Origin: Syntrophales bacterium
Lineage (GTDB): Bacteria; Desulfobacterota; Syntrophia; Syntrophales; UBA2210
Assembly: GCA_963662405.2 (NCBI GenBank)
Contig: CAXXKT010000002.1
Location: 320,001 to 384,000 of the forward strand
DNA: 64,000 nucleotides
Direction: 5' to 3'
Shown here: positions 3,214 through 59,596 of the stretch, piece by piece
Layout: every line of letters begins with the position of its first letter
Position numbering within the stretch: the first letter of the stretch is position 1
The notes under the pieces: generated by a model
Told to the model about the DNA's origin: nothing
The model's input: only the letters and a program-made list of their open reading frames with translations
Databases searched by the model: none
Translations under genes and position numbers: made by a program

Positions 3214-3320
3214 CTTTCGGGACATTTAAAAGGCCCCCGGTTTCTCTGTCGGACCACTCCGCCCTTCTTGAATATATTGTATTGTTATGACGATATTATT
3301 AATTTTCTGTGATAGGAAAG

Positions 3321-3446
3321 CTTGACAATCCGTCATGATAGAGTTAACGGGGTAATAGCTTTGATCTTGGCGTTTTTTTCTACTTATGAGCGGCTGTAAC
3401 CAATGGAGGGGATTATGGTCTGATCGTCAAGAACTTTTTCCCCTCC
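3321..3446 (+). repeat. Repeated non-coding module, copy A
   Basis: CTTGACA-N11-TAGAGTTA followed by CTGTAAC..GGGGATTATGGTCTGATC; homologous to 5497-5660 and 15677-15851. Confidence 0.75.
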
Positions 3447-5496: not shown

Positions 5497-5660
5497 AAAG
5501 CCCCATCTCTCATTTTTGAGAAACAGGGCTTTGGATGATCAGGCCATAATCCCCCCAAGTTACAGATGTTCACAAGTAAACAATAACGTGAAAATCAAAA
5601 CCGCTAAACGCTTAACTCTATGACAAGACTTTGTCAAGCAATTTTCAGCGAGACTTTCAA
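5497..5660 (-). repeat. Repeated non-coding module, copy B, with terminator hairpin (candidate sRNA/leader)
   Basis: Strongly similar to 15677-15851; hairpin AAAGCCCTGTTTCTCA..TGAGAGATGGGGCTTT. Confidence 0.75.
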
Positions 5661-5684
5661 GGAAAAACCAAGTTAACGTATCAG

Positions 5685-8461: not shown

Positions 8462-8922
8462 TTCATCTTGAGGGCCACCTGAAAGAGCTGACTACTATGA
8501 TGGTCGAGTTCTGCCGCTCTGATATGGGGGATGACATTGATATCATGACCTCTCTACGGGGGATTGGTGAGAAAACGGCGGCAAACTTTCTTATCGAGAT
8601 GGGAGGTGATATCCAGAGATTTGAAGATCACAAAAAACTTATCGCCATGGCGGGTATTGATCCTGCCATATATCAGTCTGGAAAGCATGAAGGGCACGGC
8701 AGGATCACCAAGCGCGGGAATCGTCATCTCAGACGAGTAATCTGGCTTATGACTATCCGGGTTATTCAATTCAATCAGTGTTTCCAAAACTACTATAAAA
8801 AGAGGATCCGGGATGGACTTCCCTTCAAAAAAGCGGTCCTTGCTACAGCCCATAAACTCCTGAGGGTCATTTTCGCCATGCTTACTCAAAGAACACTTTT
8901 TAACGACATGACGGAGTCATGA
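8462..8922 (+). pseudogene. IS110-family transposase, C-terminal fragment
   Basis: GIG..TA, AGIDP..YQSG, ITKRGNRHLR, AHKLLRVIFAML; no N-terminal DEDD domain. Confidence 0.85.
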
Positions 8923-12009: not shown

Positions 12010-12243
12010 ATCAAAAGTAAGTCAATAAAACATGGTTAAGTTCTCAATTCTATTACGGGATTTTGTCAAGAACTATTACGGTGAGACTTTAAAGCGGCAA
12101 TCATCGATTTTCTTTTGGAATCATCCTCAGCGGTAGTAGGTGCAACGTGTGAGATTTGGTGCAGCAGGAGCAGAGCTCGTATGTTGCTACGTTCTTCTTC
12201 CTGTACTCCTTGGAACTCGCATAATCGAAGGTATGAAAGACTT

Positions 12244-15676: not shown

Positions 15677-15851
15677 AAAGCCCCATCTCTCATTTTGAGA
15701 AACAGGGCTTTAGATGATCAGACCATAATCCCCTCCCGTGGTTACAGCTGTTCACAAGCGCATTCAATACAAGCAATTTCAATGAAACATATTGACTCAC
15801 TAACTCCATGATCTTGTTATGTCAAGAAATTTTACCGTGAGAATTTCAAAT
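15677..15851 (-). repeat. Repeated non-coding module, copy C (continues at 17120-17170 beyond the IS3)
   Basis: Homology to copies A, B and E. Confidence 0.75.
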
Positions 15852-15881
15852 TGATCTTGCCCCGAAAAAGTGGACACCCCA

Positions 15882-16730
15882 CTAAGTTACACACGCTTTT
15901 CGTTCAAACTCAGCGGGAGAGCAATAATTCAATGATGAATGTCTTCTAACGCAATTATAGAAAACTTCGATATATTCGAATATGCTCCCGCGAGCTTCCT
16001 GTCTTGTCTGATACTTCTCAAAATAAACAAGCTCCGTCTTTAAGGTATGGAAAAACGATTCCATAAGAGCATTGTCGTAACAATTCCCCGAAGAGTTCAT
16101 GCTCTGAATAAAACCATATTTCTCCATCAGCCCCTGAAAAGCATAGCTGGTATATTGAGTTCCACGATCTGAATGAAACATAACACCAGCTTTGGGTCGC
16201 CGCTGCCTGATCGCCTTGTGCAAGGCATCTGCAAGAATCTTATGACTCAATCTGTTATCCATCGACCATCCAATAATCTTACGATTGAAAACATCCAGGA
16301 TCGCTGCCAGATAAAGCCAACCCTCTCTCGTCCAAATAAGGGTAATATCAGAAACCCACACCTTGTTGGCCACATCTGTCGAAAATCTCCGATTTAAAAG
16401 ATTATCCGCCACTAAAAACTCATGCTTGGATTTTTTGGTGGCCTTGAACCTGCGTTTCGTCTTTGCCTTAATCCCATGACTCTTCATCAGGTGAGCCACT
16501 CGTTTCCTGCTACACTTAATCCCGTGGGCCTGAAGTTCCGCTGTCACCCTCGGGCTACCATATGTGCCGCGACCCTTTATGAAAGCGTCCCGAATATACA
16601 TCAGCAACCGCTCATTCTCTCTCTGGCGGTCACTCTTGCTGTGTTTCCCCCATATGTAATAACCGCTCCTGGATACCCCCAGCACTCGGCACATCTTCTT
16701 CACCGAAAATTCGGAACGGTGATTTTCCAT
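15882..16730 (-). CDS. IS3 transposase OrfB (rve/DDE domain)
   Basis: WVSDIT, HSDRGTQY, GNCYDNALMESFF. Confidence 0.92.
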   Translation of the reverse strand: MENHRSEFSVKKMCRVLGVSRSGYYIWGKHSKSDRQRENERLLMYIRDAFIKGRGTYGSPRVTAELQAHGIKCSRKRVAHLMKSHGIKAKTKRRFKATKKSKHEFLVADNLLNRRFSTDVANKVWVSDITLIWTREGWLYLAAILDVFNRKIIGWSMDNRLSHKILADALHKAIRQRRPKAGVMFHSDRGTQYTSYAFQGLMEKYGFIQSMNSSGNCYDNALMESFFHTLKTELVYFEKYQTRQEARGSIFEYIEVFYNCVRRHSSLNYCSPAEFERKACVT

Positions 16731-16741
16731 GAACTCATACT

Positions 16742-17044
16742 TTACTTTGGGTGTTTCGAGAAGATGGCCAACGCTTTTTTTAAGATTTCCCTCTCCTCCC
16801 TTAAGCTCTCATTCTCCCGCCGCAACCGACGAAGTTCCTCCTCAGGTGCCTTCAAATGACCTTTCCCGGGAAAAGCTTGCTCCATGTCCGCCCGATATTT
16901 ACGCCTCCACTGATGAAGCAGGTTTTTATGAACATTCAAATCCTTAGCTAGATCACTTACAGAACGTTTACCTTCATCCATTAACCGAATCGCCTCATAC
17001 TTAAACTCCCGATCAAAATACCGCTTATCCTTCCCATTAACCAT
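16742..17044 (-). CDS. IS3 transposase OrfA
   Basis: FDREFK.EA, HTH, EREILKKA with an A7G slippery site for -1 frameshifting. Confidence 0.9.
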   Translation of the reverse strand: MVNGKDKRYFDREFKYEAIRLMDEGKRSVSDLAKDLNVHKNLLHQWRRKYRADMEQAFPGKGHLKAPEEELRRLRRENESLREEREILKKALAIFSKHPK

Positions 17045-17263
17045 GACATGCCTCCTCGTTACTCTATGTCTATAAGAGAAACTCTTCGGTATGTCCACTA
17101 AATCGGGGGAAGACCAAATGGTAATGAATGATTTTTCTCTGCGATTGTTTTGAGTGTTTGTAGGTGGCGTCAATAACCGACACTCTGGCATTTTCCTTTA
17201 TCCTGCCTGAACAGTACGGATTGAAAGCCAAGCCGCGAATCCATTTCCCACATTTATTGACTA

Positions 17264-17378
17264 CAAATACAAGTCATCACCACAATTCGTCAGCCAACCT
17301 TATCGAATGCGGGTTGAAAGATGCACAACTCGGGCTGCACATTCTAGGTTCATGTAGATTATCTGCTCCTTCCTGAAA
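17264..17378. repeat. 115-bp direct repeat, copy 2
   Basis: Nearly identical to 12244-12358. Confidence 0.9.
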
Positions 17379-23182: not shown

Positions 23183-23277
23183 TAACTCTAAAAAGGCGCT
23201 TTGTCAAGAGATAGTGCAATGAGACTTTCAAATGGTAATGAGTTATTTTCCCATGAGATTGTTTTAAGGAGTAGTAG
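23183..23277 (-). repeat. Repeated non-coding module, copy E (interrupted by IS110)
   Basis: TAACTCTA-N11-TGTCAAG-N12-GAGACTTTCAAATGGTAATG..GTAGTAG. Confidence 0.75.
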
Positions 23278-23289
23278 ATACCGTTCTTG

Positions 23290-24258
23290 TCAAGCGAAAG
23301 CTGGTTTATAATTTGGGTCATACTTTTTGCCGGATTTCAGGATTCCAAAGATAATGTGCACCAGCTTCCTCATTATCGCACAGACAATCACTTTCCCGTT
23401 TTTTCCTTTCTCTTTAAGGCGATTATAAAAAGCAATCATAACGGGATTACATTGGATCGATACCAGTGCCGGCATATACAGAGCTTTTCTGAGCCGCGCA
23501 TGTCCGATTTTGCATAACCTGGGTTTGCCTTTAATAGATGATCCTGAAAGTGTTTCCCGTGGCGCAAGCCCGATGAACGCCACCAGTTCCCGCACATGAC
23601 TGAATTTGTCCAGATCATCCAATTCTGCCAGGATGTGAGGAATGGTTGCCGTGCCGATACCTGGAATGGAAGCCAAGAGCCCTTTCTTGTTTTTCAGGTT
23701 CGGATCCCGATCAATTAGATCAGCAATCTGTTCCCTGATTTTCTCTATTTCCTTATCAAGATAGTTAATGTGTTCTCTGATCAATGGAATAACTGATTCA
23801 TGAGCTGCACTTATTCGATTCTTCTCCTGACTTCGCATGTTGATCAGACTGTCAACTCGCCTGACCAACGCCCTCAGGGCTCTGATCTCCGGTGAGGGTG
23901 GACTCCAGGGATCTGGTCTCATAGCCAGACAGAATCTGGCAATCAAGGCTGCATCAACCTTATCCGTCTTGGTGCGAATCAACTCGCTCTGGCCAAACCC
24001 TTTGATGCGAGCGGGATTGACAACACTGACCACATGGCCGGTTTCATGGAGATAGATCGCCAATTCCTCTCCATAGTTGCCGGTCGCCTCAAGGCAGGCA
24101 TGTACCTTATGAACTCCCTGTCTCTCCAGCCAGATCGTCAGTGTCTCAAAACCTTCCACCGTATTTTTGCAGGTTTTGTGTTTTGTCTTCCCCTCTACAA
24201 GAAGTGCAACGTCGAATTTCTGTTTTGCGATATCTATCCCAAGAACCGATACTGACAT
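23290..24258 (-). CDS. IS110 recombinase/transposase, intact
   Basis: DEDD residues GIDIAK, LEATG, KTDKVDA; Tnp domain GLAP...SGSS. Confidence 0.95.
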   Translation of the reverse strand: MSVSVLGIDIAKQKFDVALLVEGKTKHKTCKNTVEGFETLTIWLERQGVHKVHACLEATGNYGEELAIYLHETGHVVSVVNPARIKGFGQSELIRTKTDKVDAALIARFCLAMRPDPWSPPSPEIRALRALVRRVDSLINMRSQEKNRISAAHESVIPLIREHINYLDKEIEKIREQIADLIDRDPNLKNKKGLLASIPGIGTATIPHILAELDDLDKFSHVRELVAFIGLAPRETLSGSSIKGKPRLCKIGHARLRKALYMPALVSIQCNPVMIAFYNRLKEKGKNGKVIVCAIMRKLVHIIFGILKSGKKYDPNYKPAFA

Positions 24259-24294
24259 ACTACAATACTCCCTCGTACATTAATCTAATCTCCA

Positions 24295-24470
24295 GTAAAA
24301 TAGCTTCGTTCGAATCAACCTTGTAAGTGCAAACTCATTCCCATCTGAGAAGGTTTATGATACCGTACGAGTTATTGAACAAAGCTGTGGGAAGAGGATC
24401 TACTCTACAAATCATGCTCTCTGGCATCAGGTGAAACACAGATTCACTCTCCCCATTTTACCCCAGTGTC
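24295..24470 (-). ncRNA. Bridge RNA (target- and donor-binding loops); boundaries approximate
   Basis: Guide segments TTCACCT, GTAG, ACGGTATC and ACAAG match the element's target and donor junction, in the expected order. Confidence 0.8.
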
Positions 24471-24665
24471 TCAAGATCTCTTATATCTCCTAATCCCCTT
24501 CTAGAACACAAGGTGAAGACAATTTTCATTCCTGTGCCTTGACCTCATCCCTTGATTAGGTACGTATAAATCACCGGCACGGATGAGTGCCCCGGTGCAG
24601 GACTTGTAATCGACAGCCTGTATAGATGGAATCGTTTTTCCATACCTTAAAGACGGAGCTTGTTT

Positions 24666-24838
24666 ATTTTGAGAAGTATCAGACAAGACAGGGGGCTCGC
24701 GGAAGCATATTTGAATATATTGAAGTTTTCTATAATTGAGTTAGAAGACATTCGTCATTGAATTATTGCTCTCCCGCTGAAATTACAAGAAAAGCGTGTG
24801 TAACTTCGTGGGGTGCCCACTTTTCCGGGGCAAGATCA
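24666..24838 (+). mobile_element. IS3 right-end remnant, same family as 15852-17116, opposite orientation
   Basis: Degenerate [19 protein letters not shown] and terminal ..GGGGCAAGATCA. Confidence 0.85.
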
Positions 24839-25136
24839 AATGGGAATATATGCCGTGTTGACTATCGCGAACAATCCTTCCCGATCATTAATGGCAATCT
24901 AAGCACTCGGAAATCCATCATACTTTTTACCTTACCTTGAAACAGAATCTATCTGCATTTATCATGTGCCATCATTTACCAGAAACTACTTGACCTGTAA
25001 CGCTCTTCTTTGTAAATCAAAAGTTAATCAATCATTCAATTCGGGCGCTTGCTGAATATAGAAGTGGTGGATGGTGAAGTTCTTTTAGTTATTGGGCTGT
25101 TTGTCTCGAACAACTCAGGTGTATAGGAGGTACTCA

Positions 25137-32562: not shown

Positions 32563-33408
32563 CTATACTCTTGATTGTTTTATGATTTTGGATATACGGT
32601 CTTTTTTGTCTTTGTGGCGGTAATAAGCCTTTGTGACGACTTCATATGAAGTGTTGAAATGAAGTTTCATTCCAGCCTCAGCAATAATCCTGAAGCATTC
32701 ATAGAGGGGTACATTAAACCGCTGGCTCAAGAAATCAGTAAGATGTGCATACCGCACATCAATGAAAAAGTTTTTGTATGGTGATGGCCCCTTTCGAGTT
32801 GGTTGTTTCGTCTTCCCTTCCATGACAGAGCCAGCATACGCCCGAAACGGGTTTGGAACAGGTTTTCCATTGCCCACATATGCACTTGATATTTCCATGA
32901 TGGCACGATGTGCCGCGGGATCGCCCAACTCTTTGGTGTCCAACAAGAGACACTGACGATAGAAGTGCGGCCGGTGCCGTCCTGTTATCGATATCATTTT
33001 GTCGGTTACGCGGGAGCTTGTCACTATAAAGAATTTCGAAGGATCGGAAAGGACTGTTTCAAGGTCTGAGGAAGTTAGCGCCTCATTGAGTTCAGCTGTT
33101 TCTCCCTTTTCTCTGATGTCTTCCTCAGCGTCGGTCTTGGCGTAATCGTAAATAAACTCCCATTTCCATCGACCATCTTTCGGTAAGTAGCACCTGATCT
33201 CTCGCAAATAGGCGCAAAGATAATCGGTATTTATCGACTCATCATCGTGCAAAGAGTAGCCAGCAAGAATTTTGTGAATGTTCACCTGAATCAGGTGGGG
33301 ATCATCTTGCTGTGCTTCCCAACTCTTCAGAAAGAAAAAATTGCCCTCGCCTTTCAAAGCCATCCGCAAGTATCCGACAGCACATTTCAATGCCTCTTCT
33401 CTGCTCAT
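32563..33408 (-). CDS. Hypothetical protein, translationally coupled to the integrase
   Basis: 281-aa ORF with ATGA overlap. Confidence 0.65.
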   Translation of the reverse strand: MSREEALKCAVGYLRMALKGEGNFFFLKSWEAQQDDPHLIQVNIHKILAGYSLHDDESINTDYLCAYLREIRCYLPKDGRWKWEFIYDYAKTDAEEDIREKGETAELNEALTSSDLETVLSDPSKFFIVTSSRVTDKMISITGRHRPHFYRQCLLLDTKELGDPAAHRAIMEISSAYVGNGKPVPNPFRAYAGSVMEGKTKQPTRKGPSPYKNFFIDVRYAHLTDFLSQRFNVPLYECFRIIAEAGMKLHFNTSYEVVTKAYYRHKDKKDRISKIIKQSRV

Positions 33409-34721
33409 CGGCGCGCTCCCTTCGCCTCTGTGATCGGGATCACCTTCTTTTCTTCATCACCGCTTGTGATTCGTTTCAAGTGTTGTTCCCACTTCACAAG
33501 AGTTGATCGCTTCTCTTTTGTATATGCGTAACGGTCGTAGTGGGCGGCTTGCACTCCTGAAATACCGTGGGAGAGCAACTGGGCACGGATGTCACGACTC
33601 ACCCCAAGCTCTGCCAGCATGGTTTCACAAGTCCGACGTACATCCCGAAGGTCGAAGGCTTCACCGTCCATCGTACCGGCAATTTCGGTCACCCGCGGTC
33701 CCGGTACGCTTATATGCAGCGGGGTTTTCAGGGTACCTGAAGGGAAAAGAAAAGGTGTCTTTGCCTCATCTGATCTCTTTATGAGTTCGTTAACGGTCGA
33801 AGCGGCAACCGGCGCGAGGGGGAGAAGATGTTCCCGCGGTTCCGACCGTTTCCCTTTTGGGTCTGTTAGGCGGAGGGTTTTTGTCTCGGGTGTCCAGTCT
33901 GAGACCTCGGCTCTTAATATCTGCGCCATTCTCTGCCCCCCTGCATACAGGGCAAGTTTCAGGGCAAGGTCGACCGTACTATCTCCCAGGGATTGGATGT
34001 ACTCCTTCAGTTCTTCACGGTTCAAAGTCCGGTTACGAGCCTTCACGGGTATGGTCGGGATAAGGTCAACAGGATTCGTTTCAATGTTGAAGTCGATAAA
34101 GGCTTTCGGGAGGGTTCCATCAAACGGCGCTCGCCTCGCACAGCTGTAAGCCGCGGCCAAACTGCTCCTGAAAATCCCCGCCGTTCTCTCTTTGCCTTTT
34201 TGGGTGATACTTCTGACAAGACCCGCGATATCGTGGGGGGTCACTTGTCGCGCTGGTTTTTCTGAAAGTTCCGGCTCCACTTCCACCAGGTGAACCTTCA
34301 CAACCGACCGGACCCCCGCCGCGGTCCTATTCTTCCCCCGTGCATCAAGGTAGTCGGCGTAAGTATCCAGGAGCGTTTTCAGGGTATACCTCTTGACCGC
34401 TTCCGCCTCCTTTTTGGCTCTTTCTCTGGCCTCTCTCTGCGCCTTTTTTTCGGCTCTGGGATCAATGCCCCTGTCTACCAGACCTTGAAGTCGCCGTGCC
34501 TCTTTTCGTGCATCTTCAATAATCCAATCGGAACATTTCCCGATTGTCAAACGTATGGTTGTACGATCAAGTTTCCCCTCGAACACATAGGATTTGACAC
34601 CGGAGACCGTGACTCTCACCGCAAGCCTTTGAACGTCCGTATCCCAGGTAAACGACTGTTCTTTTCCTTTAGGACATTCCAGGCGTCTGATACGATCATT
34701 TGTGAGCCTGACTCGTTCCAT
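33405..34721 (-). CDS. int: Tyrosine integrase (P4-like, N-terminal arm-binding domain)
   Basis: WD...LAVRV..SG.KS, GQR, DVRRT, LLSH, HYDRY; adjacent to att. Confidence 0.93.
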   Translation of the reverse strand: MERVRLTNDRIRRLECPKGKEQSFTWDTDVQRLAVRVTVSGVKSYVFEGKLDRTTIRLTIGKCSDWIIEDARKEARRLQGLVDRGIDPRAEKKAQREARERAKKEAEAVKRYTLKTLLDTYADYLDARGKNRTAAGVRSVVKVHLVEVEPELSEKPARQVTPHDIAGLVRSITQKGKERTAGIFRSSLAAAYSCARRAPFDGTLPKAFIDFNIETNPVDLIPTIPVKARNRTLNREELKEYIQSLGDSTVDLALKLALYAGGQRMAQILRAEVSDWTPETKTLRLTDPKGKRSEPREHLLPLAPVAASTVNELIKRSDEAKTPFLFPSGTLKTPLHISVPGPRVTEIAGTMDGEAFDLRDVRRTCETMLAELGVSRDIRAQLLSHGISGVQAAHYDRYAYTKEKRSTLVKWEQHLKRITSGDEEKKVIPITEAKGARR

Positions 34722-58483: not shown

Positions 58484-59596
58484 ATGAAGATGAGTATCGG
58501 GGTTGACCTTCACAAGACGCAGTTTACCGTTTGTTGTTTGAGTGAAGATCGGAGTGTTCAGGAGTCGGGCATCTACCCGACGACTGATCGAGGTTACCGG
58601 GCATTTATCATGAAGGTGTCCAACTGGAATGAGGGCGGTTACGAGGTCACGGCAGCGGTGGAATCAACAGGGAACACCCGACACTTTCGCAACCGGTTTT
58701 TGAAGGCGGGGATTGAGGTCAAGATAGTGAACACCTTGAAATTCAAGGTTGTAAATGAGTCAGTAAAAAAGACTGACAAGCATGATTCCCGCACATTGGC
58801 TGAGTTTCTTGAGAAAGATATGCTTCCCGAGTCCATTCTTTGTTCGCAGGAAAGCGAGGACATTCGAAGGCTTCTCAAGTCACGTTCTGTTCTGGTGAAA
58901 GCTTTGGTATCCTTGAAAAACCAGATACACGGTTTATTGCTTGGATATGGGATAGAGAGTCGGCGGGGACAGCTGCAGAGCAAAAAAGAAAGGCAGCGAA
59001 TCCTTGACGGTCTCGCGGACCATAGGAGTTACGGAAACGCTGCCCGAGCGGTAAAACCGCTTCTTGGTACAATAGACCAAATTGCATCCGAGGTCAAAGG
59101 ACTTGAGCGCGTATTATCTGATCTTGTTTCTGAAGACGAGGATGTTGCTCTGTTGCAAACGATTCCTGGCGTTGGAATAATAACAGCAGCGACGATTCGG
59201 GCTTATACCGATGACATCAACCGATATGAGAGCGCCAAGCAGTATGCTGCTCATGCCGGTTTGGTACCATGGGTTCAAAACTCCAACAAGACCATTCGCC
59301 ATGGTCATATTACCAAGCGAGGCCCCGTGGAACTGAGGACGGCTTTTGTGCAAATGGTAATGGGGATGCTACGGCTTCGGAATAAAACCGATGGATATTG
59401 GCTTATGTACAAATACAAAGCCATGAAAGAGAACAAGGGAACCGGGAAGAGCGTAATAGCGACGGCGCGAAAGATGAGCACTATTGTATATGCCATCTTG
59501 AAGAAGGGGGAGCTGTTTGATCCATCGAAAATGCTGCCAGACCCGAAATATGTAGAGATGAGTAAGGTTGCGAGGTGTTATGCTTTGGCCGTTTAA
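58484..59596 (+). CDS. IS110-family transposase (element approx. 58290-59652)
   Basis: GVDLHK, VESTG, KTDKHDS, IPGVG, AGLVP..QNS, ITKRG, ARKM. Confidence 0.93.
   Translation: MKMSIGVDLHKTQFTVCCLSEDRSVQESGIYPTTDRGYRAFIMKVSNWNEGGYEVTAAVESTGNTRHFRNRFLKAGIEVKIVNTLKFKVVNESVKKTDKHDSRTLAEFLEKDMLPESILCSQESEDIRRLLKSRSVLVKALVSLKNQIHGLLLGYGIESRRGQLQSKKERQRILDGLADHRSYGNAARAVKPLLGTIDQIASEVKGLERVLSDLVSEDEDVALLQTIPGVGIITAATIRAYTDDINRYESAKQYAAHAGLVPWVQNSNKTIRHGHITKRGPVELRTAFVQMVMGMLRLRNKTDGYWLMYKYKAMKENKGTGKSVIATARKMSTIVYAILKKGELFDPSKMLPDPKYVEMSKVARCYALAV

Follow-up and report, generated by a model that had tools for sequence, protein, structure and literature searches.

An IS621-type IS110 element of a Syntrophales bacterium and the two-box repeat that is its probable natural target

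Introduction

The closest described relatives of the element considered here are bridge recombinases that work together with a bridge RNA, namely IS621 of E. coli (PMC11208160; structures 8wt6-9) and IS622/ISCro4 (9t56). A discontiguous right donor guide, in which nine guide bases stand against seven donor bases, has also been described for IS621 (PMC11208160). Bridge-RNA targeting of a repeat is part of known IS621 biology, and the same applies to ISPpu10, ISPa11 and ISKpn4. In fact, several IS110/IS1111 members are aimed at the sites of other elements, including ISKpn4 and ISPst6 (attC), ISPa11 (REP) and IS4321/IS5075 (Tn21 ends) (PMC11187229). ISPpu10 inserts into a repeated intergenic element, and its choice of site depends on more than guide pairing, with an adjacent GC-rich stem-loop that is conserved in structure as the further determinant (10.64898/2026.03.19.712850).

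Such additional layers matter because off-target insertion is a consequence of the short guides of bridge recombinases, a class of enzymes under development as genome-writing tools. In the literature found, the neighboring stem-loop of ISPpu10 is the sole reported layer of this kind. The clade described below lands in one class of site 70-85% of the time despite 2-5 guide mismatches, which points to a further layer of specificity. What lifts the case above the routine is a box at a fixed distance from the insertion point, together with an uncharacterized landing-pad repeat that is an insertion hot-spot in the phylum. The data also provide a series of naturally reprogrammed guides with their matched targets. 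Should the box prove to be a passenger, the element would be an ordinary IS621 orthologue.

The window is a stretch of 64,000 nucleotides from a Syntrophales bacterium, and positions without a prefix refer to it. Those prefixed C1, C2 or C3 are genome positions, and L numbers denote loci of orthologues.

The IS110 element and its copies

The window contains an intact IS110 element of 1,237 bp on the minus strand (24512-23276), with CT at either terminus, a left end of 254 bp and a right end of 14 bp after the stop codon. Its parts and its left junction are as follows:

23276..24512, minus strand: complete IS110 element of 1,237 bp, counting the CT core at either end (24512-24511 and 23277-23276); ends identical in the five genomic copies
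24513..24519, minus strand: left target half TCTTCAC, a 5/7 match to the guide
24480..24488, minus strand: internal -10-like hexamer at left-end positions 28-33, a candidate bridge RNA promoter
23290..24258, minus strand: bridge recombinase of 322 aa, with a DEDD domain (D9, E57, D99 and D102 by alignment) and an SGSS serine loop at 238-241
23278..23293, minus strand: right end, with a -35-like TTGACA (23293-23288) and the left donor ACGGTAT (23284-23278), conserved in orthologues

Five full copies occur in the genome, two of them identical, two with three differences and one at 93.6%. The four further copies have the same termini as the window copy and differ in their flanks, so that the boundaries are fixed independently and recent movement is indicated. 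The preliminary description of this DNA had read the junctions as donor ACGGTAT-CT-TGTGT and target TCTTCAC-CT-ACTAC (minus strand), and both hold exactly, with the ends confirmed by the four other copies. The window element is clearly a real, recently active RNA-guided mobile element of the known IS621 kind. At the five genomic insertion sites, the bases to the left of CT are TCTTCAC, ATAGCAC, TTTTCAC, TTTTCAC and CTTTCAC, and those to the right, in the same order, are ACTAC, ACTAC, ACAAA, ACAAC and ACTAC. These occupied sites match the 14-nt target defined by the guides at 9-13 positions.

No circle joint of the element was found in four sets of contigs covering the region, contigs being a form of data that drops rare forms. 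Across the circle junction of the window copy, a -35 is present, with no good -10 at a spacing of 16-18 bp. Of the 88 distinct left ends, 52 have TATAA at left-end position 28 and 49 have an extended TGn-TA, and the hexamer of the window copy is without the TG.

The left end has been tandemly duplicated in the genome copy at C1:165350 (C1:165268-165350) and at L034:751-834 and L035:1156-1239. The duplicated stretch is the first 82-83 bp, stopping exactly at the left target guide. L034 and L035, from two other assemblies, share the same flank and represent one event, making two independent events with the C1 copy. The DNA of the left guide is a perfect left half-site for the IS110 itself. The duplications would fit insertion of the element into its own guide by half-match recombination (10.64898/2026.08.31.748434) followed by collapse, and slippage between the 8-nt repeats fits as well. 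A module at C3:390682 has the IS110 donor half, ACGGTAT-CT, on its left side and no recombinase match beside it, and is possibly a scar of donor-half-match recombination or of a deletion. The genome also has nine copies of another, only distantly related member of the IS110 family (26% identity), including C2:378496-379527 (about 58500-59530 in the window), and two matches to a third.

The recombinase and its bridge RNA

The recombinase consists of PF01548 (the N-terminal DEDD domain) and PF02371 (the C-terminal domain with the conserved serine), and no extra domain was found relative to IS621. It matches the structures of IS621 (8wt6, E 7.8e-84) and ISCro4 (E 1.2e-82) and is 46% identical to the annotated IS621 recombinase. 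The annotated IS621 record has the junctions target ATCAGGC-CT-AC and donor ACAGTAT-CT-TG. The donor is thus one base apart (ACGGTAT here, ACAGTAT in IS621) and the right target, CT-AC, is shared, whereas the left target is (T)TTCAC here and ATCAGGC in IS621.

Two loops make up the bridge RNA in the left end:

24389..24454, minus strand: target-binding loop, with an outer stem, the left target guide (24437-24429), an inner hairpin and the right target guide (24411-24405)
24303..24385, minus strand: donor-binding loop, with the left donor guide (24366-24359) and a discontiguous right donor guide (24328-24320)

The four guide segments first read from the letters, all on the minus strand, lie where they had been placed: TTCACCT at 24435-24429, TTTGTAG at 24411-24405, ACGGTATC at 24366-24359 and ACAAG at 24324-24320. 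The left target guide is a 9-nt one, GTTTCACCT, starting at 24437 (minus strand), and the right donor guide sets 9 nt against 7 donor bases. The donor-binding loop region aligns with the IS621 left end.

The preliminary description also had each pair of guides flanking an internal hairpin and proposed folding the region as a check. The window sequence alone gives z = 0.02 and a minimum free energy fold without the target loop, so that a lone sequence is uninformative and the evidence for the structure comes from the alignment. In 30 left ends aligned together, 96.3% of cells are paired in the two-loop structure, and compensatory changes back it: two-sided changes occur in 16 of 43 pairs, compared with 4.4+-1.5 in shuffles and 4-10 in slid controls. 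In this count the target loop is the RNAalifold consensus, while the donor loop was drawn by hand on the IS621 layout before its pairs were counted, RNAalifold's own donor loop having differed from that layout. Rfam at the gathering score found only two tRNAs over the window, and at E up to 5 it found nothing relevant over 3100-25000, with no family for the bridge RNA or for the module RNA described below.

Taken with IS621, the element has the same DEDD domain and serine loop, a two-loop bridge RNA in the left end, a CT core, the discontiguous right donor guide and insertion into an intergenic repeat. Protein, donor and RNA fold all match, in agreement with the IS621 bridge-RNA layout recognized at the outset. 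It differs in its shorter target loop and linker, in a covarying 7-nt right guide, in the conserved -10-like hexamer of the left end with only 14 bp from the -35 to the junction in the main clade, and in its target, which is not a REP palindrome; the IS621 flank, for its part, is without a distal box. Of the traits of the IS110 group, the element has the domains, the CT core at both ends, a long left and a short right end, a non-coding end with two internal loops, and guides that covary with their sites. Membership in the IS110/IS621 group, with a bridge mechanism, is almost certain.

Guides and targets across orthologues

Loci were collected from genome contigs (79), from 61 genomes (26 loci; nine genomes, this one included, had a match) and from metagenomes, where the 80 best of at least 387 were taken. 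Before covariation was counted, loci with less than 60% identity were set aside, as were ten that were duplicates or fragments and two sites whose left end is duplicated, and four guides were re-parsed by hand. Left target guides matched their own targets at 236 positions compared with 210.6+-4.4 for permuted targets (46 sites), and right target guides at 159 compared with 144.8+-3.0 (40 sites). The metagenome loci repeated the result, with 307 compared with 274+-5 for left guides (61 sites) and 228 compared with 203+-3 for right guides (54 sites). Related elements are not independent, and these permutation values overstate significance. The guides, initially claimed as readable from one copy, thus covary with insertion sites in both sets of loci.

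Individual variants tell the same story. Targets track departures of the left guide from the consensus at -4..-1 in 12 of 17 cases, and departures of the right guide in 10 of 16. Clear cases are L020 and L037 (CAT), L060 (CTC), and L012 and L014 (ACTTA); in L011 and L135 both target guides have changed and the target is CAAC-CT-TTCAA. The guide-target pair of L002 is discordant. Donor variants are few: L031 changes guide and donor together, and L001 and L037 do not (L037 is a wobble). This tracking of targets by natural guide variants lends indirect support, from comparison of sequences, to the idea that the element may be reprogrammable.

The two-box target unit

The preliminary description took the heptamer CACCTAC, as the conserved motif of a repeated module, to be the target. 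The heptamer does occur in the module copies at 12136-12142 and 17160-17166, but that description overlooked a distal box at a fixed distance, and neither the heptamer nor the module of 250 bp as a whole accounts for the insertions. What the clade follows is a unit of about 66 bp, made up of CAC-CT-AC, about 35 mostly variable bases, and then GATTAC-N3-TTGAAA at +36/+37. The tail that the module carries beyond this unit lies after only 7 of 108 insertion sites. From these alignments, the two-box unit is very likely the true natural target of the IS clade. Four copies bear on the window:

23225..23275, minus strand: right part of the occupied target unit, with the right target ACTAC, a variable spacer and the distal box CATTAC-CAT-TTGAAAG at 23240-23225
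12087..12146, minus strand: empty target unit, core at 12139-12138 and box at 12102-12087
17116..17170, minus strand: empty target unit with its distal box split by an IS3 (about 15843-17116); the module resumes near 15850-15680
17253..17320, plus strand: divergent, degenerate unit copy in which AT replaces the CT core (profile match C2:337267)

A leave-one-out scan over 66 offsets placed the top score of the distal box at offset 0 or -1 for 59 of the 66 distinct right flanks. Held-out metagenome flanks had it at -1..+1 in 37 of 54, with about seven more shifted by 2-10 nt, and the pooled orthologue insertions, partly the training set, had it at -2..+1 in 99 of 119. A unit profile built from the sites of other genomes, leaving out six boxless flanks and this genome's own five sites, found 31 units here, including all five occupied sites, and none in the shuffled genome. 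As a dispersed repeat, the unit is present in 24 of the 301 genomes from the phylum that were scanned with a strict pattern, reaching 28 copies at most; the reversed control gave no matches. Among five unit-rich genomes, three hold a relative of the recombinase and none was found in the other two. Viral contigs contained one unit.

The association is not universal. Among 82 insertions with readable guides, 12 have no box at -2..+1, some of them with the box shifted by 4-10 nt and others, among them the well-matched L004 and L128, with none at all. Five distant IS110s with a visible CT-core donor end (L045, L050, L055, L057 and L064) have no box at that position. A CT-ATTCAG subclade (L019, L140, L143 and L144, with guides readable in L140) also inserts without a distal box, so that the enzyme's need for the box is not absolute. 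L002 has guides of the CT-ATTCAG type, yet sits in a boxed unit with 7/14 matches. The guides of the sister elements L011 and L135 are directed at the other strand of the distal box, at its far end, where these elements insert; their contigs end nine bases later.

Several identities for the unit were considered. A symmetric dyad as the general layout was rejected, inverted boxes at -50 being found in only 6 of 92 left flanks. Comparison with REP/BIME found GTAG, the complement of CTAC, and no conserved palindrome or covariation in the unit. The unit was rejected as an attC, having no AAC...GTT boxes that enclose complementary arms. As for attI, which lies beside intI and upstream of the cassette array, no unit lies upstream of either intI gene, and the genes of abutting cassettes point towards the unit, which corresponds to the downstream side. 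The unit has no match in Rfam. A literature search for IS110 elements with IHF, a host factor or a distal motif, and for Syntrophales repeats, found no such box or unit in the literature that it covered; the clade may be catalogued already, for example in ISfinder or in the supplements of PMC11208160. Like the IS110/IS1111 members named above, the clade has its guides set on a conserved, multi-copy "safe" site; the targets of those members are known elements (PMC11187229), whereas the two-box unit matched nothing in Rfam or the literature searched.

Site choice and rival explanations

CACCTAC alone is no sufficient explanation of site choice, as the genome holds 270 such sites. Five of the 21 that have a distal box are occupied, compared with none of the 249 that lack one (Fisher p 1.8e-6). 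Restricting the unboxed class to intergenic sites gives 5/21 vs 0/37 (p 0.004), and with intergenic controls and a guide match of at least 10/14 the contrast shrinks to 5/15 vs 0/15 (p 0.04), the intergenic class resting on crude ORF picks. Among the 82 insertions for which guides could be read, 43 match their guides at 9-11 of 14 positions, and 38 of these 43 have the box. About 15 would be expected, a figure reached by hand arithmetic from this genome's supply of boxed to intergenic unboxed sites (6:24, 8:15 and 5:8) as a proxy for other hosts. Such sites are not independent, as elements are related and several come from the same genome. On this comparative evidence, an IS621-type mechanism with a preference for the boxed unit that lies outside the guide is probable.

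Of course, a target that is a repeat always brings conserved flanks along, and the box may thus be a passenger. Under guide-only targeting, a different system would maintain the two-box site to which the box belongs, evolution would have fitted the guides to the left box of the unit, and insertions elsewhere would match worse or be purged from genes, leaving an ordinary IS621 orthologue. The unit does exist independently of the IS, as the 24 of 301 genomes and the two unit-rich genomes without a detected recombinase relative attest. Moreover, six of this genome's eight best-matched sites (>=12/14) are units, and IS621 is reported to need no bacterial host factor in human cells (10.1101/2025.05.14.653916). 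The excess of boxes at weakly matched insertions and the 37 empty intergenic unboxed sites argue against this explanation, which is best regarded as a doubtful but serious contender. It is improbable that the IS or its recombinase made the unit or spreads it, for instance by half-match recombination, which is reported for IS621 (10.64898/2026.08.31.748434) and would join new left flanks to the same right flank, so that the abrupt left edge of the module at the core would be a scar of IS activity. Module homology does begin at CAC-CT, with unrelated sequence further left, and both tandem duplications of the left end stop precisely where the left guide is reached. Yet the box is not part of the IS (its best score near the donor junction is 8.9), units abound in genomes where no recombinase relative was found, and no left-end-only footprint joined to a right target turned up.

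A target secondary structure, rather than a protein-bound box, could conceivably be the extra determinant, as the target stem-loop used by ISPpu10 illustrates (10.64898/2026.03.19.712850), and the unit consensus has a loose inverted repeat pairing +3..+12 with +31..+42. In 40 reconstructed targets, however, the best axis has 32% complementarity, which is the expectation from column frequencies, the stem positions coincide with the conserved letters, and there is no covariation. A target hairpin was rejected on these grounds, and structure is a very remote prospect as the determinant. The likeness to ISPpu10 is one of plan, in that an IS110 element enters a repeated intergenic element with a presumed layer of site choice beyond guide pairing; there the layer is a structure-conserved stem-loop next to the site (10.64898/2026.03.19.712850), whereas here the candidate is a box of conserved sequence at a distance of 36-37 bp, and no stem covaries.

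A possible mechanism

By analogy with IS621, the element would excise or copy itself out as a circle joining ACGGTAT-CT-TG. The bridge RNA encoded in the left end would then pair with the circle junction through its donor loop and with (T)TTCAC-CT-AC(AAA) through its target loop, and recombination would take place at the CT core. On the preferred reading, guide pairing would set the point of crossover, and something outside the guide would favor boxed sites. The most likely extra factor would be a host DNA-binding or DNA-bending protein that occupies the distal box, at a distance of about 3.5 helical turns, and presents a U-bent target. Whether the distal box acts mechanistically at all is close to evenly balanced, with a slight lean against it.

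IHF has the consensus WATCAA-N4-TTR. On its other strand, the distal box reads TTTCAA-N4-TAA, with two departures from that consensus, one of them at a strongly conserved position. The genome has eight genes of the HU/IHF family, and two of these matches (C1:1937170 and C1:301029) lie in open frames of 191 aa in module-rich regions, about 4-5 kb from units. An analogy, limited to the way of working, can be drawn with the phased landing pads found in CRISPR leaders and at phage att sites, which combine IHF with sequence motifs (10.1101/2023.05.26.542337). Conserved boxes, a fixed spacing, variable DNA between them and a position near the point of integration are common to both, and the distal box here is IHF-like in sequence.

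A more far-reaching version is put forward tentatively: recognition by two factors, with the guide reading the crossover and a host protein at the phased box, 36-37 bp away, licensing it, and with the unit as an undescribed, phylum-wide landing pad for several mobile systems. Its users would be this IS at one end, the reprogrammed sister IS (L011 and L135) at the other, integron cassettes just past the box, and an IS3 within it.

The module, the island and integron cassettes

Most units of this genome lead into a stretch with TTGACA and then into a conserved sequence of about 110 nt that ends in a terminator-like hairpin. The occupied copy retains the beginning of this tail:

23190..23224, minus strand: start of the lineage-specific module tail, with TTGACA at 23207-23202; the RNA-like part is missing in this copy

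Copies of the tail also lie at 15680-15850 (minus), 5500-5662 (minus) and 3320-3430 (plus). Its 110 nt contain a Shine-Dalgarno-like GGAGGGG, a two-codon ORF (ATG-GTC-TGA) and the hairpin, have no Rfam match, and are a candidate for an undescribed small RNA family. The tail was found in 18 of 24 genomes of the same family, and four of the seven insertion sites that it follows, promoter and RNA included, come from this genome. Pieces of 148 bp stacked upstream of some modules were considered as footprints of the IS110 left end, an idea that found no support.

A profile of the module gave 56 matches over all three contigs. The preliminary description had seen the recombinase as specialized for a repeat of mobile islands; all five genomic copies are indeed in the repeat, but the repeat is not island-specific, and neither unit nor module is confined to the tRNA-Lys island of the window. 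Removal of the IS had likewise been said to restore homology to the copy at 17157, which is an overstatement, as the homology amounts to 40 nt at 82.5%, all of it on the right side of the core, with no more than CAC in common on the left. The match of that copy to the right guide does stand, over the full CTACAAA (17157-17163), but its left guide match is only 3/7 and the site is empty.

The tRNA-Lys island spans about 32 kb (3086-34979), bounded by a 56-bp direct repeat (3086-3141/34924-34979), with a tyrosine integrase at 33405-34721. It has satellite-like ORFs (CHC2 zinc-finger and D5-like) and a cargo of PAS, GGDEF, EAL and HD-GYP domains. The IS3-family element inside the distal box of the 17157 unit is full (15843-17116), and a 222-bp IS3 end fragment, 92% identical, lies at 24626-24847, 114 bp from the left end of the IS110. 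Between 7100 and 8922, an IS200-like Y1 gene and an IS1595-family gene sit in nested inverted repeats (7100-7128/8430-8458 and 7633-7659/8358-8384). Next to them comes part of another IS110 recombinase (8497-8922).

In several empty units, an attC-like hairpin accompanied by a converging gene begins 0-9 nt past the box. Three heuristics for such hairpins gave 2/31, 8/31 and 5/31 units in this genome compared with 0/60, 3/150 and 4/150 random sites, and these heuristics are insensitive, two versions having missed a clear attC near C1:244441 (IS-excised numbering). A count by eye came to about 8 of 31 units and is not objective. Orthologue flanks gave 0/90 and 2/103. Further counts were 2/30 empty and 3/91 occupied units compared with 5/816 controls and, in held-out data, 3/87 compared with 3/5,576 windows. 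Adjacency of cassettes to the unit is enriched over background and occurs in a minority of cases. The genes beside empty units, at 31 loci, are unrelated to each other.

Boxes may also be stacked. In L194, L196, L197, L200 and L203, and in the genome near C1:1.94 Mb, a CAGGAAG box lies near -62 and a further distal box near -114, with a repeat period of about 151 bp. Units of this genome also lie back to back in both orientations, much like a mosaic repeat.
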